A model generated the notes under the pieces. It had not been told where the DNA came from, did no database searches, and saw nothing but the letters and a program-made list of their open reading frames with translations. DNA of 34,634 nucleotides from a virus. Lineage: Duplodnaviria; Heunggongvirae; Uroviricota; Caudoviricetes. The stretch is from the IMG/VR virus record IMGVR_UViG_2541047873_000007. One strand, written 5' to 3'. A program made the position numbers and the translations under genes. Shown one piece after another: positions 2,391-34,634 of the stretch (position 1 is the first letter of the stretch; each line of letters opens with the position of its first letter).

Positions 2391-2987
2391 TCAGTGGGAG
2401 TGGTGGCTGGAGTTTTCGCCATCAGACAGCATACTGCCCGTGGCATGGGCATTCCCTTTAATCTCGATATTGCCATGGATGGTCGCGGTAACACCTTTAC
2501 CACCAGAACCCGCCATGCCTCCTTCGTAAATCAGCTTTCCCCTGACACGCAGATCTCCGGTAAGTTCGGTTTCCGGTGCGTCAATCGTGGCTTTCTGTGT
2601 TTTCAATACCACATCAGCACCACACTCAATGACAATATGCTCAATGCCGCCCCGGATGGTCAGAGTGTGCGTCTTCCGGTTGTAGCTGTACTCTGCACCA
2701 TCAGCAAACCGGGTTCCCCGGATATTTTTGTCACTGAACGGTGGTTTATCGACGTCTGAATACACCGCGCCCAGAATAACACCATCCTCGCCGTTGGCAT
2801 CGAGCAGCACCTCAACCTGCTCCCCCACGTCAGGGAGCCAGTAATCTTTGTTATCCTGGGTATTACGCTGCAGCACGTTAAGCCAGTTTGTGCGCAGGTT
2901 ATCGCATTCAGGCAGACGAACGCGGGCCTGAACCCTGTCGGCATCAACGGCACTGACCGTACCGACCTGACGAGTGACACCAGTCAT
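2391..2987 (-). CDS. Baseplate assembly/spike protein V-like (Mu gp45-like)
   Basis: 198 aa; position between the hub protein and the gp25-like gene; stop/start overlap with the upstream gene. Confidence 0.65.
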   Translation of the reverse strand: MTGVTRQVGTVSAVDADRVQARVRLPECDNLRTNWLNVLQRNTQDNKDYWLPDVGEQVEVLLDANGEDGVILGAVYSDVDKPPFSDKNIRGTRFADGAEYSYNRKTHTLTIRGGIEHIVIECGADVVLKTQKATIDAPETELTGDLRVRGKLIYEGGMAGSGGKGVTATIHGNIEIKGNAHATGSMLSDGENSSHHSH

Positions 2988-4138
2988 TTTTTCTTCTCCT
3001 TAATCACCGTCGATGTACTGCCATCCGGGTGATAAACCGTGAGTTTCTGAGTTTTTTGTTTTTTCCCTCTTGTGACTGGCCCCCGTGCCACTTCCAGCTC
3101 TGTGGTGTAGCCGCTGTTACGGTCAAACGCATGGCGGGCAGTGGTTATGAGCCATGGCCCGGATAACTGCCCAAAACCCACCAGTTCAATTTTGTTGCCT
3201 GCTGTCAGTTGAGGTGTTCCCGTCAGCGTCAGGGAGCCGTTCTGCTGGTATTCGTTATGTCTGGCCAGTGCTGAATCCGCTTTAATCCGGGCACTGTCCG
3301 GGTCGCTGACGCGGCTGTTAACTTTAAGTGAGTCAGCGCTGGTAACCTTACCACCTTTGAGCTTTTTGTCGCTTTCACGGGTACCACCATCAGCTTCGTG
3401 GACGATCAGTTTTTTACTGCTGCTTTTCTGGTGTTTTACCTTTGCAGATTTATAGACCCGGTTGATGGTGTCACGCAGGGAAAAGCGGGCCACATCCTGC
3501 GGTTTTAACTGCCTGACCGTCTCCTGACTGCGCAGTGTGGCCAGATGAGAAAAAATCAGCTGGTCACTGACCACTTTCACTGCATAACCATACTCGCTGG
3601 CCAGCCGGCGCAGAAAACCCACGTCGGTTTCAGCATACTGGGTCACCCGGTCGATTCTGATGGACTCAATGCTGCCCACCAGTTTCAGCCGGTGCTTTCT
3701 GGCAATCCGCCCCGCAACAGCTGCCAGCGTGGTGTTCTCAAAACCACGGCTGGATTTAGTCCGCAGAGCACTGTTAACCGAGGTGGCCACCCCACGGATA
3801 GAAACAACGGAAGCGGGCGAACTCACTTCGATCTCGTCTATAGAGAACGTACCGCAGGACAGCAGCTTCTCGCCCTGATAGCCCATTTTCAGCGTCAGCG
3901 TGTCACCCTTGCCCGGATACCACTTATCCAGCCAGCGGCCATCGGTGTCGTCCAGCTCCACCTCAATGGTATCGGACTCATTTTTGATGTTATCGCTCCA
4001 GGTCACACGGGTGACATAAGGCGCGATATCAGAGGTGATGTTTTTCTGCAGATACCACAGAGTGAACACCGGTGTCAGCACATCGCTGACGCCGGTTAAC
4101 GCTGATGTGACTTGCGCAGTGCTGTTTATCTCAGCCAT
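2984..4138 (-). CDS. Tail/baseplate hub protein (Mu P / P2 gpD-like)
   Basis: 384 aa; synteny downstream of the tape measure, matching Mu gp44 in size. Confidence 0.65.
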   Translation of the reverse strand: MAEINSTAQVTSALTGVSDVLTPVFTLWYLQKNITSDIAPYVTRVTWSDNIKNESDTIEVELDDTDGRWLDKWYPGKGDTLTLKMGYQGEKLLSCGTFSIDEIEVSSPASVVSIRGVATSVNSALRTKSSRGFENTTLAAVAGRIARKHRLKLVGSIESIRIDRVTQYAETDVGFLRRLASEYGYAVKVVSDQLIFSHLATLRSQETVRQLKPQDVARFSLRDTINRVYKSAKVKHQKSSSKKLIVHEADGGTRESDKKLKGGKVTSADSLKVNSRVSDPDSARIKADSALARHNEYQQNGSLTLTGTPQLTAGNKIELVGFGQLSGPWLITTARHAFDRNSGYTTELEVARGPVTRGKKQKTQKLTVYHPDGSTSTVIKEKKK

Positions 4139-4341
4139 GGGGCAATATCCTCTTCTGTACGGGCTTCTTCAGTCTCAATCACCGGGATCAGTAACAACAG
4201 CCCGGAGGGCAGCACCGGCGTGATGGCCACGTGCGGATTGGCGGCAATAATCCGGGGATAGCCCAGCGGGTCACCGTAGTACTGCCATGCCAGCGAATCC
4301 CAGCGCTCTCCGTCACGGGTAACATGTTCAAGAAACATCAC
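4126..4341 (-). CDS. Small tail protein, P2 gpX-like
   Basis: 71 aa; small protein inside the tail module; gpX-like assignment by size and position. Confidence 0.45.
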   Translation of the reverse strand: MMFLEHVTRDGERWDSLAWQYYGDPLGYPRIIAANPHVAITPVLPSGLLLLIPVIETEEARTEEDIAPWLR

Positions 4342-5222
4342 ACACTCCTCGTCAGTATTCTGGCGGCCATTGCACTTAATCCCGGAGACATGCGGTTGAA
4401 TGCTGTGCCGGCGGCGTTAAGCTGCCCGGAAACGGTATCCAGAGCACCTGCAATATTTCTTTTGTCCACACCACTCAGCGCAGACTGTGCCTGCTGTACA
4501 TACGTGGCTGCTTCGCTGGCTGTTCTGGCCAGACTGATGGCATCGGGCATGGATTCAGAGAGTGCGTTAAACGCCGGAACACTTTTCCCCAGAGCCCCGG
4601 AGATATTACCCAGTCCGCTCATCAGCCCCGGCACACGGGTCAGTGCGACAACGGGGTTATCCTTCATTTTCTGTGTCACCCGAACGGCGCTGATAGTGGT
4701 CTGGAGTACAGACTGCGCCTGTTTCGCATAGTTGACGCCGTTGCGGATGAACTGCGCCACCCCTGAAGGTGAAGGAATGGCACCGGAGACCGCCCCGACA
4801 CCCGGGAGCTTCGTGCGTATTGCCGGTGGTTGCAGAGGATTTTTCGGATCACCGGTGTATTCCCGGAGAGACACGGTGGCACTGACAGCCAGCACGTTAC
4901 CGGTGCTGTCTGTCTGCTCGCTGGTTGCGGTCACATCGGTAATCACGAACCAGCCACGATAGTCACCGTTGCCGAAGACCAGCGCCAGTGCCTGATGGGC
5001 TTTCATGGCTGTTCGCAGTCTCGCCAGCTCCACATCGGGTACACAATAATGCTGATGGAAAACCAGAGTTATCTGGATTTCGTCCAGCCTGTCGCCGACG
5101 AACTGCAGGCCAGGCTTACCCCCGATGCGGGCATGCTCCGCATAATCGACGCCGAACGTGGCCTCGAAGCCGTCCCAGTAGGTAATCAGCTCAAACTCAA
5201 TATCACCCAGTACGGCAAACAT
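4338..5222 (-). CDS. Tail protein (Mu N / DNA-circularisation-like)
   Basis: 294 aa immediately downstream of the tape measure, co-directional and overlapping. Confidence 0.5.
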   Translation of the reverse strand: MFAVLGDIEFELITYWDGFEATFGVDYAEHARIGGKPGLQFVGDRLDEIQITLVFHQHYCVPDVELARLRTAMKAHQALALVFGNGDYRGWFVITDVTATSEQTDSTGNVLAVSATVSLREYTGDPKNPLQPPAIRTKLPGVGAVSGAIPSPSGVAQFIRNGVNYAKQAQSVLQTTISAVRVTQKMKDNPVVALTRVPGLMSGLGNISGALGKSVPAFNALSESMPDAISLARTASEAATYVQQAQSALSGVDKRNIAGALDTVSGQLNAAGTAFNRMSPGLSAMAARILTRSV

Positions 5223-8200
5223 CAGCGGTACTCCTTACGTTGTTTCTGAGCCAGCAGACGCTCCAGCATTTTTTCCAGCTCATGCAGGCTCATATTCAGG
5301 GCGCCAGTCAGTCCGGCAGGCGCTGTGGTTTCCCTGCCATTGAGGAAAAACTGAGGATTAAAGCTGACCTGGATACCACCAGACGTTCCACCGCCGGTTG
5401 CAGCTGCACCACGGCCTGAATATCCGGCAGCCAGGATTTCAGGCGAGGGGATACGGGGAACATCCGGTGTCATCTCATTTGCCAGACGTTGCCCTGGTAA
5501 AATCGATGCCCGGGTGGAGAGCGGAATAGCGGGCATGGAAGACAAACTATTGATTACGGCTCCGATCGCATTTTTAGCAGACGACATAAACCCATTGATA
5601 TCGGGCAACGGCATACTGAAGCGAACACCTGAAGTGTTATCCCGTATTTCTGGCCCCTGAATGCTCACGGGCATTTTGGGGAGCAGTTCACTGGCCATTC
5701 GCTGCCCGGCCAGAGCTGCAAGCGGAGTGGTCCGCTGCAGGCCAATGGCGGCCCCCTGCGCGATATTGTCACCAAAGCCCATAAACACGCGGCTCGGCGA
5801 ATGAATGCCCAGCTTTTCGCTGAACCAGCCACTGATGCTGTCACCCATTCCGGTTACACTGGATTTGAGCGACTCCCATTTGTTTTTGATACCGTTAATC
5901 AGACCGTCGACAAGATGGCCACCGAAGTCGGTGAACTTTGCCGGCAGATCAACACCAAGATATTTCAGCGCAGCTGCAAAGGCTTTATAGAGCAGACCTG
6001 CCGGCGACCAGTTAATCAGCAGCTTACCAGTTCCCGCGATACCGCCGTTAAAGGCTTCCTGAATGTCAGCCCAGCACTGTTTAAACCAGCTACTGATGCT
6101 GTCACCCATTCCGGTTACACTGGATTTGAGCGACCCCCATTTGTTTTTGATACCGTTAATCAGACCGTCGATAAGATGGCCACCGAAGTCGGTGAACTTT
6201 GCCGGCAGAGCAACGCCGAAATATTTCAGCGCAGCCGCAAAGGCTTTATAGAGCAGGCCTGCCGGCGACCAGTTAATCAGCAACTTACCAGTTCCCGCGA
6301 TACCGCCGTTAAAGGCTTCCTGAATGTCAGCCCAGCACTGTTTAAACCAGCTACTGATGCTGTCACCCATTCCGGTTACACTGGATTTGAGCGACCCCCA
6401 TTTGTTTTTGATACCGTTAATCAGACCGTCGATAAGATGGCCACCGAAGTCGGTGAACTTTGCCGGCAGAGCAACGCCGAAATATTTCAGCGCAGCCGCA
6501 AAGGCTTTATAGAGCAGGCCTGCCGGCGACCAGTTAATCAGCAACTTACCAATTCCCACAATGCCGCCGTTAAAGGCTTCCTGAATGTCTGCCCAGCGCT
6601 GTTTAAACCAGCCACTGACTGCCCCCCAGTTGCGGTAGATAAGGTAAGCTGCTGCCGCGACAGCGGTGATAACGAGACCGATGGGATTCATCATCAGCGC
6701 ACGTCCAATCCAGAGAACAGCACGTCCGGCGAGCATAATTCCGCGAACCAGCCCCCCGGAGAGCACGCCACTCAGTGTTCTGGCTCCTTTGGCGACGGCG
6801 CTAAATCCGGTCACCAGCCAGCGGAGCTTACCGCCTTGCCCCAGTGCGAGCGACAGACGAAGCCAGTTGGCCCGAAGTAAAACAGCATTTTTCCAGACAC
6901 TTACAAAGGGGGAAATAAGGAGATTCAGCCCCAGTTTGAGACCAACAGTCGCTATCTTAATCGCAAGGAGCGCACTGATGAGCTTAAAAGCCCCACTGAC
7001 AAATTGCGGGTGAGTCGCTACCCAGTGTTTTGCCCCCTGAATGAGTGGAAGCAGTTCCTGAGTCAGAGAAATAAAAGATGGAGCTAATTGATCGCCCAGC
7101 GTAATTGCCAGATCACGACTGCTGACCATAAGTGCTTTAGTGGCTTCAAGGGGAGATTTCAGCCGCTGATCATAAGCACTGGCAAGCAAATCGTTATCCG
7201 CAGCCCTGAGAGCACCGGCACGGATCTCTCGATATCTGTCCATGTTGGCCAGCATCGGGCGGATAAATGCCATGACCTGCATATCCGCGAACATATCGCC
7301 CAGACCAAAGTTTTTCGCCAGAGCCTGAAGTGCCTCATCTCTTGCCGTATCATTCTTTATTTTCATGGCTGATTTGAAGCCGGCCAGCGCTTCGGGGCTT
7401 TTGGCATTGAGGTAACGTTCTATAACACTCAACATCCCTTCAATCGGAGAGATCCCCGCAGCTTTATAACTCGCAATAGATCCCTGCAAATCAATACCCA
7501 GATCAGCAAACTGTTTCTGAGTATCGCGGGCAAAAATTTTGGTAAGAAAGTTTTTAAAATTATTGGCTGCTTCGTCGGTGGAACCTGCACCGATTTTTGC
7601 TATCTGGAGACTGGCCCCGATTTCAGCAACAGCCTCTTTTCCACTGGCAATACCCGCCATCATTGGGGCCAGGGACTGCATCCACTTGACCTGATCCGGG
7701 ATTTCAAATGACCCCTGGTCACCGGCATAAGCCATAATATTCTGAACGGCACCAAAATCTCTGGCCGCACCTTTCAGGGAGTTTTGCCAGACTGCGGCCA
7801 CTTTTGCCCAGTCCTGAGCAGACGTGCGTGTTGCCGTTGCCGCGCGGGCAATATCCGGCATCAGAAAACCGATATCTGACACATTATCAATATTGTCGCT
7901 GATGAGTGAACCCACCGCCTCCTGCAGCTCATCCTGATACTGATTGTATTTAAGCGCCCAGCCTTTTATCTGTCCGGCAAGTGCATCCCGCGTTTTATTG
8001 TCATATTTTGCGGTGATCGACATATCAATCATTTTGTCCTGAAAAGACATGGACTGCTGAACGGCAGGGGAAACCGTATGATAAACAGTCTGTGCCATGC
8101 CATACGCTTCAATCCCCTGACCATACAGCGCCATGCGGTTAGCTTTCAGCGCATCACTGGTAGCGGATGCCGCTGACAGACGGCGCTGCTGGCGCTCAAT

Positions 8201-8434
8201 TTGCTCCATGGTGCGGCTTACCCGCAGCAGCTCGCTGTTGAGATGCTGCATCCGGGAAGAACCCAGTTGACCATAACGTTCTGTTGCACGGGTTAAAGCG
8301 TTCTGACGTTCCTGCAGGCGGCGTGAGGTATCGCTCAGGGAATCAAGCGCACGGCGGGTACCGCTCATTGCAGAACGGAATGTGCTACCAATCATCCCGC
8401 CGATAACAACGCCGACTGAAAACTGTCCCGACAT
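5222..8434 (-). CDS. Tail tape measure protein
   Basis: 1070 aa; helical N-terminus, hydrophobic central segments, internal 87-aa triplication; GGAGG 8 nt upstream of ATG 8434; sits between chaperone and baseplate genes. Confidence 0.9.
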   Translation of the reverse strand: MSGQFSVGVVIGGMIGSTFRSAMSGTRRALDSLSDTSRRLQERQNALTRATERYGQLGSSRMQHLNSELLRVSRTMEQIERQQRRLSAASATSDALKANRMALYGQGIEAYGMAQTVYHTVSPAVQQSMSFQDKMIDMSITAKYDNKTRDALAGQIKGWALKYNQYQDELQEAVGSLISDNIDNVSDIGFLMPDIARAATATRTSAQDWAKVAAVWQNSLKGAARDFGAVQNIMAYAGDQGSFEIPDQVKWMQSLAPMMAGIASGKEAVAEIGASLQIAKIGAGSTDEAANNFKNFLTKIFARDTQKQFADLGIDLQGSIASYKAAGISPIEGMLSVIERYLNAKSPEALAGFKSAMKIKNDTARDEALQALAKNFGLGDMFADMQVMAFIRPMLANMDRYREIRAGALRAADNDLLASAYDQRLKSPLEATKALMVSSRDLAITLGDQLAPSFISLTQELLPLIQGAKHWVATHPQFVSGAFKLISALLAIKIATVGLKLGLNLLISPFVSVWKNAVLLRANWLRLSLALGQGGKLRWLVTGFSAVAKGARTLSGVLSGGLVRGIMLAGRAVLWIGRALMMNPIGLVITAVAAAAYLIYRNWGAVSGWFKQRWADIQEAFNGGIVGIGKLLINWSPAGLLYKAFAAALKYFGVALPAKFTDFGGHLIDGLINGIKNKWGSLKSSVTGMGDSISSWFKQCWADIQEAFNGGIAGTGKLLINWSPAGLLYKAFAAALKYFGVALPAKFTDFGGHLIDGLINGIKNKWGSLKSSVTGMGDSISSWFKQCWADIQEAFNGGIAGTGKLLINWSPAGLLYKAFAAALKYLGVDLPAKFTDFGGHLVDGLINGIKNKWESLKSSVTGMGDSISGWFSEKLGIHSPSRVFMGFGDNIAQGAAIGLQRTTPLAALAGQRMASELLPKMPVSIQGPEIRDNTSGVRFSMPLPDINGFMSSAKNAIGAVINSLSSMPAIPLSTRASILPGQRLANEMTPDVPRIPSPEILAAGYSGRGAAATGGGTSGGIQVSFNPQFFLNGRETTAPAGLTGALNMSLHELEKMLERLLAQKQRKEYR
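5825..6607. repeat. Three tandem copies of a 261-bp (87-codon) unit inside the tape measure gene
   Basis: Units start at 5825, 6086 and 6347; copies 2 and 3 near-identical, copy 1 slightly diverged; protein repeat SWFKQ(C/R)WADIQEAFNGGI...GMGDSIS x3. Confidence 0.9.
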
Positions 8435-8509: not shown

Positions 8510-8767
8510 CTATGATTTGTCGCCGTACTCGCTTTTTATTTGCTCTTCAGCCTGCTCCAGCCACATCTCCAGATCGTCAGTATCGAGGGCATCAATCTCC
8601 CCCGGCTGAAACCGGAACCATCTCGCCAGCAGCCCCTGCGCCTGCGTCAGCGCCCTGGTTGCTCTCACCCATCCCCGTGATGAGCTGAAATCGTTTCTGT
8701 AACTGCAGGTAATCAGCCAGATCCATATTGTCGAGATCTTCCGGGAGAAGACCAGTACTGCGGGCAA
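8510..8767 (-). CDS. Probable frameshift extension of the tail chaperone
   Basis: Overlapping ORF in another frame; only its C-terminal about 35 aa (FQPGEIDALDTDDLEMWLEQAEEQIKSEYGDKS) look protein-like. Confidence 0.4.
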   Translation of the reverse strand: MPAVLVFSRKISTIWIWLITCSYRNDFSSSRGWVRATRALTQAQGLLARWFRFQPGEIDALDTDDLEMWLEQAEEQIKSEYGDKS

Positions 8768-8927
8768 TCAGCGGTTCGTCCCAGTCTGCCGGGTTTTTGC
8801 TGATTTTGCGCACCTGCTTCAGGTCTTTTACCGTCAGGCGTTTCAGTTCAACCAGCTCAATTCTGGTGCCTGCAGCAGTGGTGAAGGGATAAGACAATTT
8901 AAAAGTATCGGATGGGGTCTGTGACAT
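8592..8927 (-). CDS. Tail assembly chaperone
   Basis: 111 aa directly upstream of the tape measure; AGGAG 8 nt upstream of ATG 8927. Confidence 0.6.
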   Translation of the reverse strand: MSQTPSDTFKLSYPFTTAAGTRIELVELKRLTVKDLKQVRKISKNPADWDEPLIARSTGLLPEDLDNMDLADYLQLQKRFQLITGMGESNQGADAGAGAAGEMVPVSAGGD

Positions 8928-9308: not shown

Positions 9309-9830
9309 TCAGCCCCCGATATTGATACGGTAGTCAGTCAGTTGATCAACACCGCCGACCCGGAAGATGTTGGCCAGATAGTCCAGTTGCAGCAGCTCTT
9401 CACCATCCAGTACCTGTCTGATATACGTGCAGGTGAAGCTACTGGAGAACTCGGCGTTCTCGTGCTGTTTGAACGTCCCCAGCGGGTTCTTCTTGAACAT
9501 AATCGTCAGGAAGGTGACCAGCGGGATTTCGTCAATCAGCCCCTGCGAGCTGTAGCGCTGGACGCTGGAACGACACTGCAGTGCCAGCGACCTGTACGGG
9601 TTCGCGGCAGACAGCATCGCATCGCGGTAAAAGCTGTTCCATTTGATTTCGCCTTCCAGTTTGTCAAAACCAGCCGGGAGTTCCACCTTACCCACCATCC
9701 CCAGCGCCTTGTGTTCCTGCATAATCATGGAGACATCGGGGAGTTTAACTTCCTCAGCCCGTCCCAGCAGGTTAGTACCATCCAGATAGATGTTGGCATT
9801 CGTGATGCGGTTTATCTCAATCTTTGACAT
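9309..9830 (-). CDS. Tail tube protein
   Basis: 173 aa directly downstream of the sheath gene. Confidence 0.7.
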   Translation of the reverse strand: MSKIEINRITNANIYLDGTNLLGRAEEVKLPDVSMIMQEHKALGMVGKVELPAGFDKLEGEIKWNSFYRDAMLSAANPYRSLALQCRSSVQRYSSQGLIDEIPLVTFLTIMFKKNPLGTFKQHENAEFSSSFTCTYIRQVLDGEELLQLDYLANIFRVGGVDQLTDYRINIGG

Positions 9831-11257
9831 CAGTTGCCCCCTTTCAGGGTTAACAGGTATTCCGAGGTGATCTCAGTCTCAAACGTCAGTCGCTCCAGCG
9901 GCGGTGGTGGCGTATATTTGTAGCTCAGCAACAGGTGCCCGGCGGCCAGCTCCGTCTCCGGATTGCGGGCCGGATCAAACCAGCAACGGAAGCCCAGTAC
10001 CGCACCATCACCAGTCATTTTGCGACCGTAGGCGTTGACCGACTCCGTCAGTGCATCAATCAGCGCCTGAGTAATCGGCATGTCGATGTACTGCTGGCTG
10101 AAATAACGAATGGACTCGTTGATCACATCACCGGTGCGGCGAACGTTCTCAAAGTTACGCATATGGGTGACCGTTGGCCATGCTGCCGTCCGGTTACCCC
10201 ACAGACGAAGGCCGCTGCCGTAACTGCTGAATACCGTGGTGATCCCCTGTTCGTTAAGCAGGTTCACCTCACTCTGCGGGTCATCAATCATCGCGGACAG
10301 CTGGCGCTCCACGCCGGTGATCCCCAGAATCTCCTGATTGGAGGATGACCACCAGTAGCCCTTGTCCAGATCGACTCTGGCACGCAGACCTGCTGCACGC
10401 TGGCTGAGCGGCTCCAGACGCTCTGTGTTTGTCACCGGGTCATATACCTTCACATGCGGATAGCACAGACGGACGCGGTCGGAGCTGGTATTGAAGTTGA
10501 TGGTGCCTTCCGGGCCACGACCTGCCAGAGCCTGTGCAAAGGTGGTACCGACAGGCGCATCAATGTAGGTTACCGCGCCCAGCTTCTCTGCCATGGCGAT
10601 AAGCTCAACTGCGACACTCTTCTGGGTGCAGAACACCGGCGCAATCAGAATTTTGGCGAAATAGCCGTACAGGTTGAAGCTGTCGTTAAGCAGCTTCATG
10701 CCAGTTCGGTTTCCGGCGCTATTCACCCCGCCGATGATGTCCGCCGCAGTCACCTTCGACGGGTCCGCGTACTCATAGCTCACCTTCACGCTGCCACCGG
10801 CCTCAATAGCCTTGCCCAGGTTCGTGAGCACACCCGCCTGCGCATCAACACGGTAGTCCGTGTTCGCCGTGTGGGTGGTGCTGCCTTCACTGTTTTTCAC
10901 CACCACATTAGCGACAACCGGATGCGCCAGTCTGGCCTGCCCTGTCGATTTGTCAAAGGTAACCACCTCATCCTCGATCGCCGTTTTATGTTTCGCCGGG
11001 TCGAGGACGTTAATGACCAGAACGGTACCTGCACCATGGTCATAAATCGCATCCAGCGCCTGCGGAATGGTAAAGCCGGTGAACTGGCTGCCAAATGCCG
11101 CTGCGTCTTTCTCAGACAGGCACTGTACCAGCGTATTGACATCCCCCATCGGGGCGGTACCAATCAGGCCAATAACGGCAGATTTCACCGTTTTAACCGG
11201 GCGGGCTCCGTTTTCCACCTCAATGGTTTCGGGACCATGCAGATAGTTAGCTGCCAT
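9830..11257 (-). CDS. Contractile tail sheath protein
   Basis: 475 aa; size and position upstream of the tube gene. Confidence 0.8.
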   Translation of the reverse strand: MAANYLHGPETIEVENGARPVKTVKSAVIGLIGTAPMGDVNTLVQCLSEKDAAAFGSQFTGFTIPQALDAIYDHGAGTVLVINVLDPAKHKTAIEDEVVTFDKSTGQARLAHPVVANVVVKNSEGSTTHTANTDYRVDAQAGVLTNLGKAIEAGGSVKVSYEYADPSKVTAADIIGGVNSAGNRTGMKLLNDSFNLYGYFAKILIAPVFCTQKSVAVELIAMAEKLGAVTYIDAPVGTTFAQALAGRGPEGTINFNTSSDRVRLCYPHVKVYDPVTNTERLEPLSQRAAGLRARVDLDKGYWWSSSNQEILGITGVERQLSAMIDDPQSEVNLLNEQGITTVFSSYGSGLRLWGNRTAAWPTVTHMRNFENVRRTGDVINESIRYFSQQYIDMPITQALIDALTESVNAYGRKMTGDGAVLGFRCWFDPARNPETELAAGHLLLSYKYTPPPPLERLTFETEITSEYLLTLKGGN

Positions 11258-23629: not shown

Positions 23630-24616
23630 CTATTTAAGAATAAAACGGTATTTACTGTCAGGAGTGCTTTGCTGATCAAGTAGCAGTGAACGACATGGAG
23701 CAGTCAAAACCCGAGCATAACTACCATCAGGGCTTATGTTAATGTAACAAACCTTGCCCTTAACACTATAATTTTCGGGGACGGATGCCTTTGCTGATAC
23801 AGTAAATTTAAGGGTATGCCAGCCCGTTTTTTGCTTGTAGCTTGAAACCGAATGGAAATCATCTGAGTACTTATTTAACCCTGGAAACATGCTGCGCAGT
23901 GCGGGGATGGAATCTTCTATTATTTTATCGTTGGTTTTAATGTTAAAAACGCTGGTTTCAGTAGAAGCTACTGCTTTGGCATTTCCCCATTTACCAGCGA
24001 ACACAATCATTCCCACGAAAAATATTGCTACAAGAACTAACACTCCCCCCAACACTACTACATGAGGCTTCCGGCTTCTGGTTGGTACAGTTGCGACTGA
24101 TTTTGCACCGCTTTCCGATGGAGGTGATAGAGTTTTACTCTCATCACGAATATTCAGCAGATCATCAAAATAACCAAACACAGCCTGCAACTGCTCTTTG
24201 TCTAGGCCTTTAAGATGGGTTGTACCGAAATGCTTCAGACAGTATCTGTCACGGTCAAGACGATACCCAGGGTCAGTAAGCGCCATTATTTTGCTGACCA
24301 GAAGATTACAGTCCTTCATATTCTGGATCTGTTGTGCATATCTCTGAAGGATCTCAACCGCACCATGATAATCAGCCGCAGTCATTTCATTAACTGTTTT
24401 GGTATTAAGTTTCGTGTGGATCGTCATCCATAGCTCGCGCTTACTTTCCCCCAGATCAACCAATTCATCCATCAATCTGTGTAAATCGCGTTTTTGCAGC
24501 AACGAAATTGGTTGCTGGGCCGAAGGAAGTATGTCAGCAGAATAGTTATGAATGGTAACATCACCGCTGACAACGTTACCCACATCCCCGTTAACTGTTT
24601 GCTTCTCTTTACTCAT
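23630..24616 (-). CDS. Single-pass membrane protein with cytoplasmic N-domain and extracytoplasmic C-domain (accessory)
   Basis: 328 aa; transmembrane segment VVVLGGVLVLVAIFFVGMIVFAG; ATG 24616 overlaps the repressor stop (ATGA); AT-rich. Confidence 0.5.
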   Translation of the reverse strand: MSKEKQTVNGDVGNVVSGDVTIHNYSADILPSAQQPISLLQKRDLHRLMDELVDLGESKRELWMTIHTKLNTKTVNEMTAADYHGAVEILQRYAQQIQNMKDCNLLVSKIMALTDPGYRLDRDRYCLKHFGTTHLKGLDKEQLQAVFGYFDDLLNIRDESKTLSPPSESGAKSVATVPTRSRKPHVVVLGGVLVLVAIFFVGMIVFAGKWGNAKAVASTETSVFNIKTNDKIIEDSIPALRSMFPGLNKYSDDFHSVSSYKQKTGWHTLKFTVSAKASVPENYSVKGKVCYINISPDGSYARVLTAPCRSLLLDQQSTPDSKYRFILK

Positions 24617-26602: not shown

Positions 26603-28372
26603 ATGAATGCTGCCCTGACTGAACGACTGGTTTATGTCGCCCGCGCGGCACGTGACGCGGGGCATGGTAAACGCGGTGCAATATACGACGCTGCCTGTGC
26701 TGAACTTGGCATGTCCCGCGCCACTCTGCTGCGCAGGCTGAAGGAGGTCTCTGTGACTGATAAACGCAAAAAACGCGCTGATGCCGGACGCAGCGCCCTG
26801 ACCCGCGACGAAGCCGCGCTGATATCTGCCACACTGCGTGAGGCCACCCGCAAGAACGGTAAGCGCCTCTATTCCATCGCAGATGCAGTGGAAACCCTGC
26901 GGGCTAACGGCTTTATCACCGCAGGCAGAACAGATGAAACCACCGGTGAGTTTTTCCCGTTGTCTGAAGATGCCATCAGCCGTGCTCTGCGTAACTATGG
27001 CCTGCACCCGGAACAACTGGATGCTCCTGCACCGCATACCGAAGTGGCCAGTCTGCACCCCAATCATGTCTGGCAGATTGACGCCTCACTCTGCACGCTT
27101 TACTACCTGAGCAATGGACATAAAGGGCTGCAGGTGATGGACAGCGCGAAGTTCTACAAGAACAAGCCCGCTAACCTTGCCCGTATCGCCAGTGACCGCG
27201 TGTGGAGTTACGAGATTACCGACCATGCCAGCGGCTGGATTTACGTTGAGTATGTGACGGGCGCGGAATCAGGTGAGAACCTGTGTTCTGTGCTTATCAA
27301 CGCCATGCAGGAGCGTGGCGGCGCAGACGTGCTGCACGGCGTGCCAAAAATACTCTATCTCGACCCCGGCTCGGCAAACACCGCGGGTATGACGAAAAAC
27401 ATGTGCCGCTCACTGGGCATCGACCTGATAGCGCACAAGCCGCATAACGCCCGCGCCACCGGACAGGTGGAAAAGGCGCGAGACATTATCGAACGCAAGC
27501 TGGAGCCGGGTCTGAAGTTCCGGCCGGTTCACAGTCTGGAAGAACTCAACGCGCTGGCCGCGAAATGGCGCAGCCACTTTAACGCCACGGCTGTTCACAG
27601 CCGCCACGGTAAAACCCGCACGGATATCTGGCTGAAGATTACTGCTGAGCAGCTGAAAAAAGCGCCTTCCGTTGAGGTATGTCATGAACTGGCTGTGGCG
27701 GCACCAGAACTCCGCAAAGTCACGCCAAAACTTCGTGTCTCGTTCCGGGGCACTGAATTTGACGTATCAACGGTACCGGGCGTACTGGTTGGTGAAAAAC
27801 TGATGATTACCCGTAACCCATGGCGCAGCGATGTGGCACAGGTGGTTCTGACCGGTGAGGACGGCCACGAGACGTTCTTCCTGGTCGAAGAGGTCAGAAA
27901 GAACGAGTTTGGCTTTGCTGAAGGCGCGGCGGTATTTGGCGAAAGTTACAAAGCCCTGCCGGAAACCCCGGCACAGATGGCGGCAAAAGAAACCGAAGCG
28001 CTGGTTACCGGTACAGACAACGCCGCAGATGCAGCCGCCGCACGCAAGGCGAAGGCGCTGCCGTTCGGCGGGCGGCTTGACCCGTATAAACATATCGACG
28101 ACACCACACTTCCGGCCTATATGCCGAAGCGTGGTCAGGCCTCTGACGTACGCGGGCCGCGCACTGAACAACGTCCCATGACTCATGTGGAGGCCGCGAA
28201 AGCCCTGCGCGATAAGTTCAGCGCCGACGGCCTTACCTGGACGCCGGAACATTACCGCCAGTTAACGGCACAGTACCCGGACGGCGTACCGGAAGCCGCA
28301 CTGGATGAAGTCATGGCCACGCTGACCACACCGGCCAGCAGCAGTGTTATCAGCATTGTTAACGGCAACTGA
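26603..28372 (+). CDS. DDE transposase (integrase-core type, transposable-phage A-like)
   Basis: 589 aa; acidic residues in WQIDAS and LYLDPGSANTAG consistent with a DDE core; followed by an ATPase gene; GGAGG RBS. Confidence 0.8.
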   Translation: MNAALTERLVYVARAARDAGHGKRGAIYDAACAELGMSRATLLRRLKEVSVTDKRKKRADAGRSALTRDEAALISATLREATRKNGKRLYSIADAVETLRANGFITAGRTDETTGEFFPLSEDAISRALRNYGLHPEQLDAPAPHTEVASLHPNHVWQIDASLCTLYYLSNGHKGLQVMDSAKFYKNKPANLARIASDRVWSYEITDHASGWIYVEYVTGAESGENLCSVLINAMQERGGADVLHGVPKILYLDPGSANTAGMTKNMCRSLGIDLIAHKPHNARATGQVEKARDIIERKLEPGLKFRPVHSLEELNALAAKWRSHFNATAVHSRHGKTRTDIWLKITAEQLKKAPSVEVCHELAVAAPELRKVTPKLRVSFRGTEFDVSTVPGVLVGEKLMITRNPWRSDVAQVVLTGEDGHETFFLVEEVRKNEFGFAEGAAVFGESYKALPETPAQMAAKETEALVTGTDNAADAAAARKAKALPFGGRLDPYKHIDDTTLPAYMPKRGQASDVRGPRTEQRPMTHVEAAKALRDKFSADGLTWTPEHYRQLTAQYPDGVPEAALDEVMATLTTPASSSVISIVNGN

Positions 28373-28382
28373 GGAGGGAAAC

Positions 28383-29549
28383 ATGCTGGTACTGAAGCAG
28401 CAACTGAAAGAGGCCCGTATTCCACAGGCGGTGGTGGCGAGAGCTGTCGATGTTTCTGAGGCCACGCTGGCCCAGATTGTGAATCATAACGCGTGGCCCC
28501 GCACCAGCCCCGGAGAAGTGCGCCGGCGTCTTGCGTCCTGGCTGGAAAGTCAGGGGATTGATACAACGAAGAGTTTTGATGCTGTACAGGGCGCGGCCAC
28601 GCCCCGTACAGCGGGTACCACAGATAAAACGAGCCTCAGTGAGGAAGAGAATATGTTACTCAAAAAACAGGTGTTATTTCCAGCAACCAAAAAAGCGTTT
28701 GGTCTTTTCCGTGACCCGTTCGCCGACGAAGCCATGCAGGGTTCTGATGATGTGTTCACCACCCCGGACATTCGCTACGTGCGTGAGGCGTTGTACCAGA
28801 CAGCCCGTCATGGTGGGTTTATGGCCGTCATCGGTGAGTCCGGTGCGGGTAAATCCACGCTGCGCCGCGACCTGACTGAACGTATCAACCGCGAGAATGC
28901 GCCGGTAATTGTTATCGAGCCATACATCATCGCTATGGAAGACAACGATGTGAAAGGGAAAACCCTGAAGGCAGCAGCGATTGCCGAAGCCATTATCAGT
29001 ACCATCGCACCACTGGAAAGCATCAGACGCAGTCAGGACGCCCGCTTTCGCCAGTTGCATCGCGTCCTGAAAGACAGCAGCCAGGCGGGGTTCAGCCACG
29101 TTCTGGTGATTGAGGAGGCCCACAGTCTGCCCATTCCGACACTGAAACACCTCAAACGCTTTTTTGAGCTGGAGTCCGGTTTCAAAAAACTGCTGTCCAT
29201 CGTGCTGATTGGCCAGCCGGAACTGGCGACAAAACTGTCTGAACGCAATATGGAAGTCCGTGAAGTCGTTCAGCGCTGTGAGGTGGTCGAACTTCTGCCT
29301 CTGGACAATAACCTTGAAGAATTTCTGACGTTCAAACTGCAACGGGCCGGTAAACAACTGACGGACATTATGGACGCCAGCGCAGTGGATGCCATACGTG
29401 CCCGCCTGAGCAATCCGGGAAGTCATCGTAAAAATATGGTCAGCCTGCTGTATCCGCTGGCCGTCAGTAACCTGGTGATAGCCGCCATGAATCTGGCCGC
29501 TGAAATCGGGGTTCCACAGGTCAATGCTGACGTTGTCAAAGGGGTTTAA
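28383..29549 (+). CDS. AAA+ transposition target ATPase (MuB/TniB-like) with N-terminal HTH
   Basis: Walker A GESGAGKST, Walker B-like HVLVIEEAH; N-terminal ARIPQAVVARAVDVSEATLAQIVN; ATG 28383 with GAGGAGGG RBS (track start 28344 is a GTG). Confidence 0.8.
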   Translation: MLVLKQQLKEARIPQAVVARAVDVSEATLAQIVNHNAWPRTSPGEVRRRLASWLESQGIDTTKSFDAVQGAATPRTAGTTDKTSLSEEENMLLKKQVLFPATKKAFGLFRDPFADEAMQGSDDVFTTPDIRYVREALYQTARHGGFMAVIGESGAGKSTLRRDLTERINRENAPVIVIEPYIIAMEDNDVKGKTLKAAAIAEAIISTIAPLESIRRSQDARFRQLHRVLKDSSQAGFSHVLVIEEAHSLPIPTLKHLKRFFELESGFKKLLSIVLIGQPELATKLSERNMEVREVVQRCEVVELLPLDNNLEEFLTFKLQRAGKQLTDIMDASAVDAIRARLSNPGSHRKNMVSLLYPLAVSNLVIAAMNLAAEIGVPQVNADVVKGV

Positions 29550-29848: not shown

Positions 29849-30379
29849 ATGGCAAAAAGTACAAAAGGGGCAAAACGTATCAAGTCCGCAGCGGCACTCT
29901 GGGTACCGGGGACACGCGAAGAGGTCATTGAGGGCATCAGACTGCTCGGTGACGCACAACGTGAACTGGTCAGGGCTGAAACAGAAATGAATGACGCCAT
30001 TGGCGATATCACCGCACGTTATGCCCCGCTCACCGAGAGCCTGAAAAAACGCATGGCCGAACTGCAGTCCGGTATTCAGACATGGTGTGAGGCACACCGT
30101 GATGAACTGACCGGCAACGGGAAGGTGAAGTTCGCTAACCTCACCACCGGCGAGGTGCAGTGGCGAAACCGTCCGCCATCAGTCAGTATCCGTGGGGCGG
30201 ATAATGTTATTGAATTACTGAGACGTCTGGGGCTTGAGCGCTTTATTCGTGTAAAAGAGGAAATAAATAAAGACGCTATCCTGAATGAAAAAGAGGCCGT
30301 GAAAAATATTCCCGGTATTTCCATTAAAAGCGACATTGAGGATTTTTCAATAATTCCTTTTGAGCAGGATGTGCAGTAA
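29849..30379 (+). CDS. gam: Host-nuclease inhibitor Gam (Ku-like DNA-end binding)
   Basis: 176 aa; MAKSTKGAKRIKSAAALWVP...ETEMNDAIGDI...WCEAHRDELT...RPPSVSIRG...GIEDFSIIPFEQ closely matches Mu Gam as I recall it. Confidence 0.9.
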   Translation: MAKSTKGAKRIKSAAALWVPGTREEVIEGIRLLGDAQRELVRAETEMNDAIGDITARYAPLTESLKKRMAELQSGIQTWCEAHRDELTGNGKVKFANLTTGEVQWRNRPPSVSIRGADNVIELLRRLGLERFIRVKEEINKDAILNEKEAVKNIPGISIKSDIEDFSIIPFEQDVQ

Positions 30380-30949: not shown

Positions 30950-31246
30950 ATGACACGGAACACCATACTCACCCGCACCGCCCTCTACCGTCTGGCCCTG
31001 CAGCGTTTCGGGCCGGACGCACAGGCCCTGAAACTGACAGAAGAGGCCGCTGAACTGGCGGCCAGTGCTGCCCGCAATCTGAACGGACAGGGCAGCGAAA
31101 GTGACCTCGCGGCAGAGCTGGCAGACGTGGAAATCATGACAGAGCAATTGCGCCTTCAGGGGATGGACCGGCTGATTGACTTCCACAAACAGAAAAAACT
31201 GGAACGTCTGGCTGCACGACTGGGCGTGATTTACACGAACGAGTAA
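30950..31246 (+). CDS. MazG-like NTP pyrophosphohydrolase (small all-alpha type)
   Basis: 98 aa with EEAAELAAS ... ELADVEIM, matching the EExxE...ExxD signature. Confidence 0.5.
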   Translation: MTRNTILTRTALYRLALQRFGPDAQALKLTEEAAELAASAARNLNGQGSESDLAAELADVEIMTEQLRLQGMDRLIDFHKQKKLERLAARLGVIYTNE

Positions 31247-31260
31247 CCGGGAGGCATTCA

Positions 31261-31476
31261 ATGGCTGACATACTCAGGGAAATCACCGCATGGACACTGA
31301 TTCTTACTGGCCTGGCGACATGCCTCAGTGCGGGGGCAGCCCTGGCTGCCCTGCTGATGCACATAACAACACAGTGGTTATGGGAAAAGCTTAAAGCAGC
31401 ATACAGCCTGAAAGAGCTGTCCGACGCTGTCCGGGCATGGAAACGGCAGAAAAATACCGGAGATACAGAACAATGA
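31261..31476 (+). CDS. Small membrane protein
   Basis: 71 aa with hydrophobic segment WTLILTGLATCLSAGAALAALLM. Confidence 0.4.
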   Translation: MADILREITAWTLILTGLATCLSAGAALAALLMHITTQWLWEKLKAAYSLKELSDAVRAWKRQKNTGDTEQ

Positions 31477-32156
31477 CAGACCAGAATAAACACATTGAGA
31501 AACTGAAAAAGTTGCTGGCGCTGGCCGCATCCGGCAACCCGCACGAGGCCGCTCTGGCACTGCGCCGAGCCCGTAAACTGATGGATGTTCACGGCATCAC
31601 ACATTCCGACATTGCTATGAGTGATATTGATGAAACCATCAGTCATTACTGGCCGACAGGCAGTCTCCGTCCACCGCGCTACATGCTGGGCCTGATGAAC
31701 ATCATCCGCGAGGCATTTGGTGTTAACTCCATCATTCACCCCGGCACGCATCCGTCTGTGGGGTTCTACGGTAACCGGGAACGAGCGGCACTGGCTGCAT
31801 ACACCTGGGAAGTGCTGGTCCGCCAACTGAAAAAGGCGCGTCAGCAGTATATCAGCGCACAGAACAAAAGAATAAAAAACGCCACCCGTACCAGCCGTGG
31901 AAACCAGTTTGCTGAAGGCTGGGTACTGGCCGTTATCAGTGAAATACAGTCCTTTGCCCTGACCGATGATGAGCGTGAACTGATGCAACAGTGGCTGGAA
32001 CATAAATACCCGCAAACGCAAACCACCAGGGCGCGTAAACCGGGAAGAAGCCGCAATGGCGACGCCTCGCGCTATGCGGGGTTTCGTGAAGGGCAGAACG
32101 TCAGACTGCACCGCCCGGTCAGTGGGCAGGAACAACAGAAACTGGAGGCCAGATGA
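31473..32156 (+). CDS. Hypothetical early protein (helical N-terminal domain)
   Basis: ATG 31473 (GGAGATA upstream), N-terminus IEKLKKLLALAASGNPHEAALALRRARKLM. Confidence 0.45.
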   Translation: MTDQNKHIEKLKKLLALAASGNPHEAALALRRARKLMDVHGITHSDIAMSDIDETISHYWPTGSLRPPRYMLGLMNIIREAFGVNSIIHPGTHPSVGFYGNRERAALAAYTWEVLVRQLKKARQQYISAQNKRIKNATRTSRGNQFAEGWVLAVISEIQSFALTDDERELMQQWLEHKYPQTQTTRARKPGRSRNGDASRYAGFREGQNVRLHRPVSGQEQQKLEAR

Positions 32157-32580: not shown

Positions 32581-33030
32581 ATGCAGAAAAAACGCCTGAT
32601 ACAGCTTATCCATATTGCCCGTAATGAACTGGGTATGGATGAAGACACCTACCGCCAGATGTTACAGGGGCTGACCGGTAAAGCCTCAACCAAAGGAATG
32701 GATACCACACAACTAAACTGCGTGCTGGAATCCATGAAAAAGAAAGGCTTTCGCGTTAAACCAGCCAGAAAAGCCAGCTCCGGTTTACCGCTGGATAACC
32801 ATCCGCAGTCCAGGAAAATTCGTGCGCTATGGCTTGAAATGGCTGCTGCCGGCATTGTTCGTGACCGTTCAGAAAATGCATTAGCGAGGTGGATCAAGCG
32901 GGAAACGGGCATCAGCGCCCTGCGCTGGCTCAGTACTGAACAGGCAAGCAGTGTTATTGAGAAACTGAAGAAGTGGCAGCGCAGAGCTGCGGGAGTCAAA
33001 CATGAGCGACCTGAATCAGTTTCGAAGTAA
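32581..33030 (+). CDS. GemA-like regulatory protein (Mu gp16 family)
   Basis: 149 aa; position immediately upstream of mor; AGGAG RBS. Confidence 0.65.
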   Translation: MQKKRLIQLIHIARNELGMDEDTYRQMLQGLTGKASTKGMDTTQLNCVLESMKKKGFRVKPARKASSGLPLDNHPQSRKIRALWLEMAAAGIVRDRSENALARWIKRETGISALRWLSTEQASSVIEKLKKWQRRAAGVKHERPESVSK

Positions 33031-33478: not shown

Positions 33479-33553
<75 letters not shown>

Positions 33554-34634
33554 CCCAGACCGGCCAGGTGTGCGGCATAAACAGTACTTCCGCGTCGTTA
33601 CCCCACATATCCAGCGTTTCGTTCAGGTACTCGGTCCACTTGCTGGTATCGCGGGTTTTCGCGCCGCGCAGAGTGTAGAAGTTGTGCAGGGTATGCGTGG
33701 CGTTCTCGGCGGTACACAGGGCTTTCAGGGCCGGAATATAGAAGTGCATTTCGGCTGGCGCTTCGCTACCCGGAGTCATCAGGAAGTCAAACTCCAGGCC
33801 GTCGATAATCATCTTCTCGCCAGTTCTGACGATAGTTTTAGTCGGTGCAATAATGCTCGGGTCGCCGGTTGCCAGCGTCACGCCCAGGCCATTACCCACG
33901 TTGCCTTGCGCGTTGTGCGGCAGTAACAGACCGTAAGAGTAGAGCGCACGGCGGCTCATAATATTACCCGCCAGCACGTTTTCGCTGATGGCTTCGTCCA
34001 TAAAGCCTGCCGGAGCGATCACCTGCACTTTGCCGGATTTAACATCCGCTTCAGAGATAATGCCTTTCACACCGCCATAATGGTCGGCGTGGCTGTGGGT
34101 GTAAATAACAGCAACAATCGGTTTTTGCGGACGATGTTGGAAGTAAAGGTCAAGTGCGGCTTTTGCGGCAGGCGGCGTCACCAGTGGGTCGATAACAATA
34201 ATGCCTTTCTCGCCCTCAACGAATGTAATGTTAGAGATATCCTGGCCGCGCACCTGATACATTTTATCGGTGACTTTGAACAGGCCAGAAATGCCGTTGA
34301 TCTGCGACTGACGCCACAGGCTGGGGTTTACGGTTTCCGGCGCAGCGGCATTAATATCAAATTTGTAATCATTCGCGCGGTAGTAAACTTTGCCGTTAGC
34401 ATCACGCAGAATACCTTCATCCAGCAGCGGGGCGATAAATCCACGCTGGGCATCGTCAAAATCTTGACGATCGCTAAACGGTAATGATTTGGCGTAATTC
34501 TGATTAATCTGTTGGGTATATTGAGTGGCGGCTTTCGCTTCATCTGTTGCGTAAGCGGTATTTACCATCATGCCGCTGGCGGCAGTTAACGCAATAACAA
34601 TCCTGCTCAAACGGAATAACCGAGAGTTATTCAT
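33554..34634 (-). pseudogene. yjcS: Host MBL-fold alkyl/aryl-sulfatase gene (YjcS/SdsA1-like), 5' portion only
   Basis: Signal peptide [29 protein letters not shown] and metal site [11 protein letters not shown]; frame ends after ...HTWPVW with 10 codons of prophage-end sequence, far short of a full-length enzyme. Confidence 0.7.

Follow-up and report, generated by a model that had tools for sequence, protein, structure and literature searches.

The tape measure protein of a tailed phage lies stretched out along the lumen of the tail tube; tube and sheath grow up to its end, and its length thereby sets the number of their rings. In a 34,634-nt stretch of viral DNA (IMG/VR record IMGVR_UViG_2541047873_000007; the whole stretch is called the window here), the gene for this protein holds three tandem copies of a 261-nt unit. 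This locus raises the questions of whether the three copies are real, how they arose and whether they would lengthen the tail. We conclude that the array is very probably a copy-number-variable ruler segment of a BcepMu-like prophage, shaped by duplication, divergence and unequal crossover, with a predicted contribution of about 13 nm of tail per unit.

The array lies in the tape measure gene of a transposable prophage

The gene that holds the array (Table 1) had been called a tape measure gene in an earlier note on this DNA. Its product matches PF10145 PhageMin_Tail over aa 159-340 (E=2e-20; 73.9 bits against a cut-off of 33.2) and TIGR01760 'tape_meas_TP901' over aa 119-493 (E=5e-16; 58.6 bits against a cut-off of 28.8). 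The same ORF matches phrog_28, phrog_794 and other PHROG 'tail length tape measure protein' families, and RefSeq labels the identical gene in many genomes 'phage tail tape measure protein'. The minus-strand gene order is sheath, tube, chaperone, tape measure, gpU, gpX and gpD, followed by baseplate genes; the gpU/gpX/gpD set is assigned from PF06995, PF05954 and phrog_46. The gene is thus located between the chaperone and the baseplate hub genes, downstream of tube and sheath. This canonical position in a contractile-tail module, together with the family matches, confirms the assignment.

Elsewhere, the window contains portal, terminase, capsid and holin genes, and the ORFs of its morphogenetic module are all intact. 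A divergent early operon encodes the transposition genes of a Bcepmuvirus-like phage, namely an rve transposase, a MuB-like protein, Gam and GemA. Among deposited phages, Escherichia phage PhiKM (PQ738613, genus Bcepmuvirus) comes closest; it is 96% identical in nucleotides over the tape measure gene region and has the same flanking genes. The transposition genes, the PhiKM match and the tail module together identify the window as a BcepMu-like transposable E. coli prophage with a P2-type contractile tail. The tail-fibre end of the prophage is apparently absent from the window.

Table 1. Positions of the tape measure gene, its repeat array and the neighbouring and early genes in the window.
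Feature	Position	Strand	Remarks
gpD-like tail/baseplate hub gene	2984-4138	minus	downstream of tape measure gene
gpX-like tail/baseplate hub gene	4126-4341	minus	downstream of tape measure gene
gpU-like tail/baseplate hub gene	4338-5222	minus	downstream of tape measure gene
Tape measure protein gene	5222-8434, stop codon included	minus	1070 aa; sole long ORF spanning the array
Unit C	codon-aligned 5825-6085; nucleotide register 5823-6083	minus	aa 784-870
Unit B	codon-aligned 6086-6346; nucleotide register 6084-6344	minus	aa 697-783; hybrid, C-identical head and A-identical tail
Crossover interval in unit B	6283-6291	minus	between informative columns 54 and 62
Unit A	codon-aligned 6347-6607; nucleotide register 6345-6605	minus	aa 610-696
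13-nt TCAGTGGCTGGTT	6606-6618	minus	directly upstream of unit A; codes for S-G-W-F motif
Hydrophobic region	6638-7000	minus	just upstream of repeats; strongest at aa 479-507 and 581-599
Tail assembly chaperone (gpE/gp41 type)	8592-8927	minus	PF10109 Phage_TAC_7, E=5.5e-21; directly upstream of tape measure gene
Tail tube	9309-9830	minus	PF04985, E=2.9e-53
Tail sheath	9830-11257	minus	PF04984, PF17482
rve/Mu-type (DDE) transposase	26603-28372		divergent early operon; PF00665, phrog_310
MuB-like transposition protein	28344-29549		divergent early operon; phrog_296
Mu Gam	29849-30379		divergent early operon; PF07352
GemA	32581-33030		divergent early operon; PF06252

The middle unit is a hybrid of its two neighbours

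Tandem Repeats Finder (TRF) reports a single array at 5823-6618, with a period of 261, about 3.0 copies, 96% matches, 0 indels and a score of 1473. A separate repeat search gave 3 copies spaced 261/261 nt. The period corresponds to 87 codons (261 = 3 x 87), the array is in frame within the minus-strand ORF, and the best self-offsets of the protein are 87 and 174 aa. When aligned to codons, the units occupy exactly 5825-6607 (aa 610-870), where the earlier note had placed a triplicated 87-aa unit. We do not consider a plus-strand ORF across the array (5801-6880, 359 aa) to be a gene, since it runs antisense to the well-supported tape measure gene and owes its length to the repetition of a stop-free frame.

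The units, named A, B and C in the direction of transcription, differ per 261 nt by 6 (A-B), 10 (B-C) and 16 (A-C) substitutions, an identity far above chance expectation. An earlier description of two of the units as nearly identical is roughly right (A/B, 97.7%; B/C, 96.2%), yet B is more exactly a hybrid with the head of C and the tail of A. Unit B differs from A at columns 8, 16, 43, 46, 48 and 54 only, and from C at columns 62, 88, 109, 125, 127, 130, 135, 173, 210 and 254 only, where column n of unit B is window position 6345-n. It therefore equals C over columns 1-61 and A over columns 55-261 and has 0 private differences; put as non-overlapping pieces, its first 61 nt are those of C and its last 200 nt those of A. 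All 16 of the 16 A/C informative sites in B are consistent with one breakpoint, and just 15 of 65,536 random A/C patterns have this head-C/tail-A form. Such a single-breakpoint hybrid is the mark left by one unequal crossover in an ancestor that had two copies, A and C.

The boundaries of the array carry a second mark. The 13 nt TCAGTGGCTGGTT that precede unit A are identical to the final 13 nt of unit C (5823-5835) and account for the overhang in TRF's count of 3.05 copies; this 13-nt direct repeat brackets the ancestral unit. Between A and C, dS is 0.148 and dN is 0.041. The resulting dN/dS of about 0.28 indicates that the copies are under purifying selection.

Within the protein, the unit is rich in Gly, Leu, Ala and Trp and directly follows the two most hydrophobic stretches, which reach peaks of 1.83-1.88 in a Kyte-Doolittle scan (window 19). 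An AlphaFold2 model of aa 560-900, made without an alignment, is all-helix at low confidence (mean pLDDT 43.5, pTM 0.19) and speaks neither for nor against an extended conformation. A self-alignment of the two halves of the unit (aa 1-44 against aa 45-87) scored 33, compared with 21.5 +/- 4.3 for shuffles, of which 1.6% reached 33; an internal half-unit repeat is therefore marginal, and we make no claim for it.

Copy number varies among complete E. coli genomes

Of 5426 complete E. coli genomes, 636 carry the tape measure gene or close relatives of it. Copy number was read in 60 evenly spaced genomes of these 636 carriers. Two copies, in a span of 2952 nt, are present in 40 of the 60 (39 full spans and one match cut at one end), and three copies, spanning 3213 nt, in 14, which fall into two sequence lineages. 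A single copy (2691 nt) occurs once, and the 5 remaining genomes carry more distant genes. The 120 best protein clusters give a similar series: 21 have three copies, 93 have two and 6 have one. Four-copy alleles were found neither among these 120 best clusters nor in the 60-genome spread sample of the 636 carriers. The 1084-aa protein P0068 has two copies of the unit and, next to the array, a perfect 101-aa duplication of its own.

Variation in copy number among relatives, which had been proposed for this repeat, is thus borne out by forms with 1, 2 and 3 copies in both complete genomes and protein clusters. A comparison of tape measure length across related prophages, suggested in the same place, gives 896, 983 and 1070 aa for 1, 2 and 3 units. 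The claim that the array adds about 174 residues holds relative to the one-copy form (2 x 87). Since the nearest relatives carry two copies, the immediate gain is 87 aa.

Repeats of this size break short-read assemblies, and a third unit could in principle be made by an assembler, or the array mis-resolved, such that the real copy number is lower or higher. The array is indeed a place where assemblies fail, as had been predicted: the PhiKM record is interrupted by a 100-N gap inside it, and the tape measure gene there is annotated 'coding region disrupted by sequencing gap'. For the allele in the window, we regard an artefact as extremely improbable. At least 49 complete E. coli genomes, NCTC9022 among them, contain the 3213-nt gene at 100.0% identity as one uninterrupted piece with the highest bit score (5934). 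They come from many laboratories, and their agreement excludes assembly as the source of the allele. In addition, 6 to 16 substitutions tell the three units apart, the breakpoint in the hybrid unit is single and clean, the exact two-copy parent is known, and a second three-copy lineage has a different sequence.

A two-copy parent allele and the origin of the third unit

The exact parent is found in E. coli AVS0225 (CP124492), in which a 2952-nt two-copy gene consists of units that are exactly A and C. Its flanks show 0 differences from those of the window across 1829 nt upstream and 601 nt downstream (2430 nt). AF10 has a two-copy allele too, and its unit 2, like that of AVS0225, is identical to unit C. 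Our interpretation of B as the product of a crossover in an A-C array is thus matched by an existing A-C allele, although, in principle, a deletion within A-B-C might also give back an A-C allele.

From these data we infer the following recombination pathway. The 87-aa segment, single-copy in more distant relatives, would have been duplicated, with slippage between the bracketing 13-nt direct repeats as a plausible route. The two copies would then have diverged by 6% into units A and C. In a recent step, unit C of one DNA copy would have paired with unit A of another, and an exchange between columns 54 and 62 would have inserted a third unit with the head of C and the tail of A. Since the unit length of 261 nt is divisible by 3, all products of expansion or contraction stay in frame. 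This order of events is taken from the hybrid nature of B rather than from a rooted phylogeny. Of the earlier proposal of a recent triplication, the recency is retained, in that the last step appears very recent; a single event is not, since A and C are 6% apart and B is a crossover hybrid.

Other E. coli prophages carry different arrangements of the same array. In SCU-105, it reads A'-A'-C', and 1 nt distinguishes unit 1 from unit 2; the first unit of EC958 is B-like; and unit 3 of AVS0575 has been partly changed by gene conversion. The one copy in MLI114 has the head of A and the tail of C, a clean single-breakpoint hybrid at the nucleotide level, which makes it a deletion product and not the ancestral form. 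At the protein level, we counted at least 5 distinct three-copy patterns and 5 distinct one-copy patterns among the mosaics. In other E. coli prophages, the same array continues to gain and lose units and to be altered by gene conversion, with 1, 2 or 3 copies as the outcome. Most of the one-copy alleles examined in the close E. coli lineage combine A and C sequence in a mosaic, and this favours an origin by deletion over an ancestral state. The 821-aa tape measure of the GABEEC10 relative has a single unit, 28-29 nt from both A and C, and the 13-nt brackets are present in imperfect form (11/13); this gene fits a single-copy ancestral state.

Matches to the unit in distant phages

A tblastn search with the 87-aa unit found it as a single-copy segment, at 47-53% identity, in the tape measures of phiE255, phiE202, phi52237, KS14 and FLC5. 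The tape measures of phiE255 (Bcepmuvirus) and of the P2-like Burkholderia phages phiE202, phi52237 and KS14 are homologous to that of the window, with one unit-length matching piece each, and phiE255 also shares the order of the tail module and the Mu-like transposition module. The tape measures of many Ralstonia and Pseudomonas phages likewise contain the unit once, in the same identity range. A comparison with 1.84 billion representative proteins yielded 615 matches at E<=0.001. Among the best 150 of these matches were 91 full-length proteins, and 34 of the 91 have 2 to 4 unit matches each. Repeat periods in the distant relatives are 42-44, 49, 76, 87 and 113 aa, and half-units are duplicated in some. 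The unit is a conserved segment of P2/BcepMu-type tape measures, present more than once in about a third of the distant relatives, and its region has been amplified repeatedly, in different registers, across the tape measure family. Arrays of two and three copies characterise the E. coli prophage lineage; some uncultured relatives have come to multiple copies independently.

Solved structures gave one weak tape measure match over the unit region, to 9m8o chain M 'Gp14' (three chains; E=2.6e-5). This match supports conservation of the unit and is uninformative on its conformation.

Conservation at 47-53% across P2-like and BcepMu-like phages of Burkholderia, Ralstonia and Pseudomonas could mean that the unit serves mainly in genome delivery. 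The ejected tape measure would interact with the membrane or periplasm through it, and copy number would tune injection, with or without an effect on tail length. The match to the solved tape measure chain, the position directly after the two most hydrophobic stretches and the richness in Gly, Trp and Phe are all in keeping with this, as is the part that tape measure proteins take in channel formation (PMC5099701; PMC8616913). However, duplications in other registers are tolerated in the region (101 aa in P0068; periods of 42-113 aa in distant relatives), as would be expected of a spacer more than of a module with a precise fold. We therefore consider delivery as the main function very unlikely. 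The idea is compatible with a ruler effect, and a conserved Gly/Trp-rich unit beside hydrophobic stretches may have a role beyond spacing.

Predicted effect on tail length

If the unit acts as a ruler segment, its effect on the tail can be estimated from other phages. Engineered deletions and duplications shift tail length in proportion, at about 0.15 nm per residue, in lambda and TP901-1, and T4 gp29 behaves in the same way for a contractile tail (PMC5099701; PMC13585406). Indeed, internal duplication or deletion has led to a proportional change of the tail for every tape measure protein tested experimentally (PMC5099701). Two phages with homologous tape measures give comparable ratios: phiE255, with a protein of 870 aa and a tail of 143 nm, has 0.164 nm per residue, and phiE202, with 988 aa and 140 nm, has 0.142. 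At about 0.15 nm per residue, each 87-aa unit should add about 12-14 nm, or roughly three tube/sheath rings. Tape measures of 896, 983 and 1070 aa would accordingly give tails of about 134, 147 and 160 nm. A longer tail from extra units would thus follow from established tape-measure biology.

Copy number could instead drift neutrally, without an effect on the virion, either because the prophages are cryptic or decaying or because extra units are folded back or disordered. Changes of 261 nt keep the frame automatically, so an intact ORF is no proof of selection. In addition, the tail chaperone next to the one-copy gene of MLI114 is flagged as a pseudogene, and a literature search yielded no induction or microscopy data on these prophages. 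We nevertheless judge drift of this kind unlikely. The dN/dS between units speaks against it, as do the intact ORFs of the whole morphogenetic module in the window and the presence of the close relative PhiKM in GenBank as an Escherichia phage genome. The proportional response of the tested tape measure proteins (PMC5099701; T4 cited there) is a further argument, and the tape measure and tail lengths of phiE255 and phiE202 fit 0.14-0.16 nm per residue.

A bolder extension of the ruler reading is that the array is a contingency-like locus. Frequent RecA-type unequal exchange between the near-identical units would split the prophages into subpopulations whose tails differ by about 13 nm per step, and selection would sort them; the thickness of the capsule or O-antigen of E. 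coli hosts may be one example of such a force. A locus of this type would explain the recurrence of independent three-copy and one-copy alleles, as well as the amplification of the same segment in about a third of the distant P2/BcepMu-type tape measures. The evidence covers recurrence and purifying selection on the units, not selection for copy number, and we hold this extension to be doubtful.

Discussion

Tape measure length change mediated by repeats is already known (Belcaid et al. 2011, PMC3271669; Mahony et al. 2016), and repeats have been proposed as natural facilitators of such change (PMC5099701; PMC3271669). The units described are short: 11 aa in Belcaid et al. 2011 (PMC3271669) and 11/18 aa in TP901-1 (PMC5099701). 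Like these, the units studied here are tandem, are gained and lost in evolution, and have a duplication history that can be reconstructed. Unlike the 11-aa units, they have a period of 87 aa and irregular aromatic spacings (1, 4, 7, 14, 7, 3, 6, 1, 8, 3, 16 and 17), so that they are not 11-aa repeats of the Belcaid type. Their copies are 94-98% identical in DNA, which argues that homologous unequal crossover dominates here rather than ancient divergence.

The protein in the window has in common with lambda gpH, TP901-1 TMP and T4 gp29 the family core (TIGR01760, PF10145) and the position after a frameshifted chaperone. In all of these, in-frame internal duplication or deletion alters the length of the protein. 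The length variants of lambda, TP901-1 and T4 were engineered, whereas those described here are natural alleles that segregate among E. coli prophages. In contrast to lambda and TP901-1, the tail is contractile and of P2/Mu type. This case therefore differs from known ones in its 87-aa unit, in the high DNA identity between copies, and in being a natural polymorphism with an identifiable parent allele. Our literature search found no paper on tape measure variation or tail length of these E. coli prophages.

The ruler principle and tail lengthening by internal duplication have been known for decades, and for specialists the case is ordinary in this respect. In practice, assembly gaps are known to fall in the array, so tape measure genes annotated in these prophages from short-read data need care. 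The near-identical prophages of clinically common E. coli, ST131 strains included, provide a natural allelic series of 896, 983 and 1070 aa. With parent and product alleles identified, the scaling of tail length in nm per residue can be tested in a contractile-tail phage without engineering.

Reading frames around the tape measure gene and elsewhere in the window

Tail chaperone pairs usually carry their programmed frameshift in overlapping ORFs upstream of the tape measure gene. Two overlapping ORFs lie at this site in the window (8510-8927), one of them with a PF10109 domain. At the equivalent position of EC958, the RefSeq annotation gives a short "GpE family" protein. E. coli MLI114 (CP117013) has the one-copy prophage examined, where the annotation marks the neighbouring chaperone gene as a pseudogene because of an internal stop. 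The prophage could be defective; alternatively, the programmed frameshift could have given rise to this mark during annotation.

Three long ORFs elsewhere in the window are on the minus strand. The 370-aa ORF encodes a metallo-beta-lactamase-fold domain and may be a cargo or moron gene. Lying on the strand opposite to the early operon, it occupies the window's right end, where its start codon falls at the exact last position. The 333-aa ORF matches nothing in Pfam or PHROG. It may not be a gene, given the lack of a PHROG match and the overlap with a plus-strand ORF. The 328-aa ORF has no match in Pfam, and its sole match is a PHROG family of unknown function. A further ORF runs antisense across the repeat array (359 aa). 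We considered it as a gene and rejected it, since the threefold repetition of a stop-free frame most likely accounts for it.

Features in and around the tape measure gene and elsewhere in the window
Feature	Coordinates	Strand	Remarks
359-aa antisense ORF	5801-6880	+	spans repeat array
Divergent patch	~6704-6902		gene nt ~1533-1731, aa ~511-577; from comparison with EC958 and SCU-105 alleles
Second ORF	8510-8767	-	upstream of tape measure gene; overlaps 8592-8927
ORF with PF10109	8592-8927	-	upstream of tape measure gene; overlaps 8510-8767
328-aa ORF	23630-24616	-	phrog_10002
333-aa ORF	31134-32135	-	overlaps plus-strand ORF 31437-32156
370-aa ORF	33522-34634	-	PF00753, E=1e-27; phrog_8061

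Probable sequence exchange and further duplication at the repeat array

The tape measure alleles of EC958 and SCU-105 differ from the window by ~55-60 substitutions that cluster in a stretch of ~200 nt immediately upstream of the array. Outside this patch the two genes are <0.5% different from the window. Judged by this distribution of substitutions, the patch, in the hydrophobic region of the tape measure, looks like a mosaic segment imported via recombination.

Signs of exchange are also present within the array. E. coli AVS0575 (CP124483) carries a three-copy allele with both flanks exactly as in the window. Its unit 3 has A-type states, those of unit A where A and C differ, at columns 62-173 (pattern CCCCCCAAAAAAACCC), which argues that units exchanged sequence by gene conversion.

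The three-copy allele of E. coli Ecol_448 (CP015076) spans 3212 nt instead of 3213, which suggests a 1-nt indel. Either the tape measure gene of this genome would be frameshifted, or its sequence would contain an error. Escherichia phage PhiKM (PQ738613) has a 100-N gap within the array (locus positions 3853-3952), and its annotation splits the tape measure gene into two coding sequences, with the remark "disrupted by sequencing gap".

Finally, an E. coli tape measure protein of 1084 aa (P0068) combines a two-copy allele with an extra, perfect 101-aa tandem duplication around aa 533-735. This duplication lies directly upstream of unit 1 and overlaps it, in a register unlike that of the 87-aa array. 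A duplication in another register indicates that the array region tolerates further duplications as well.
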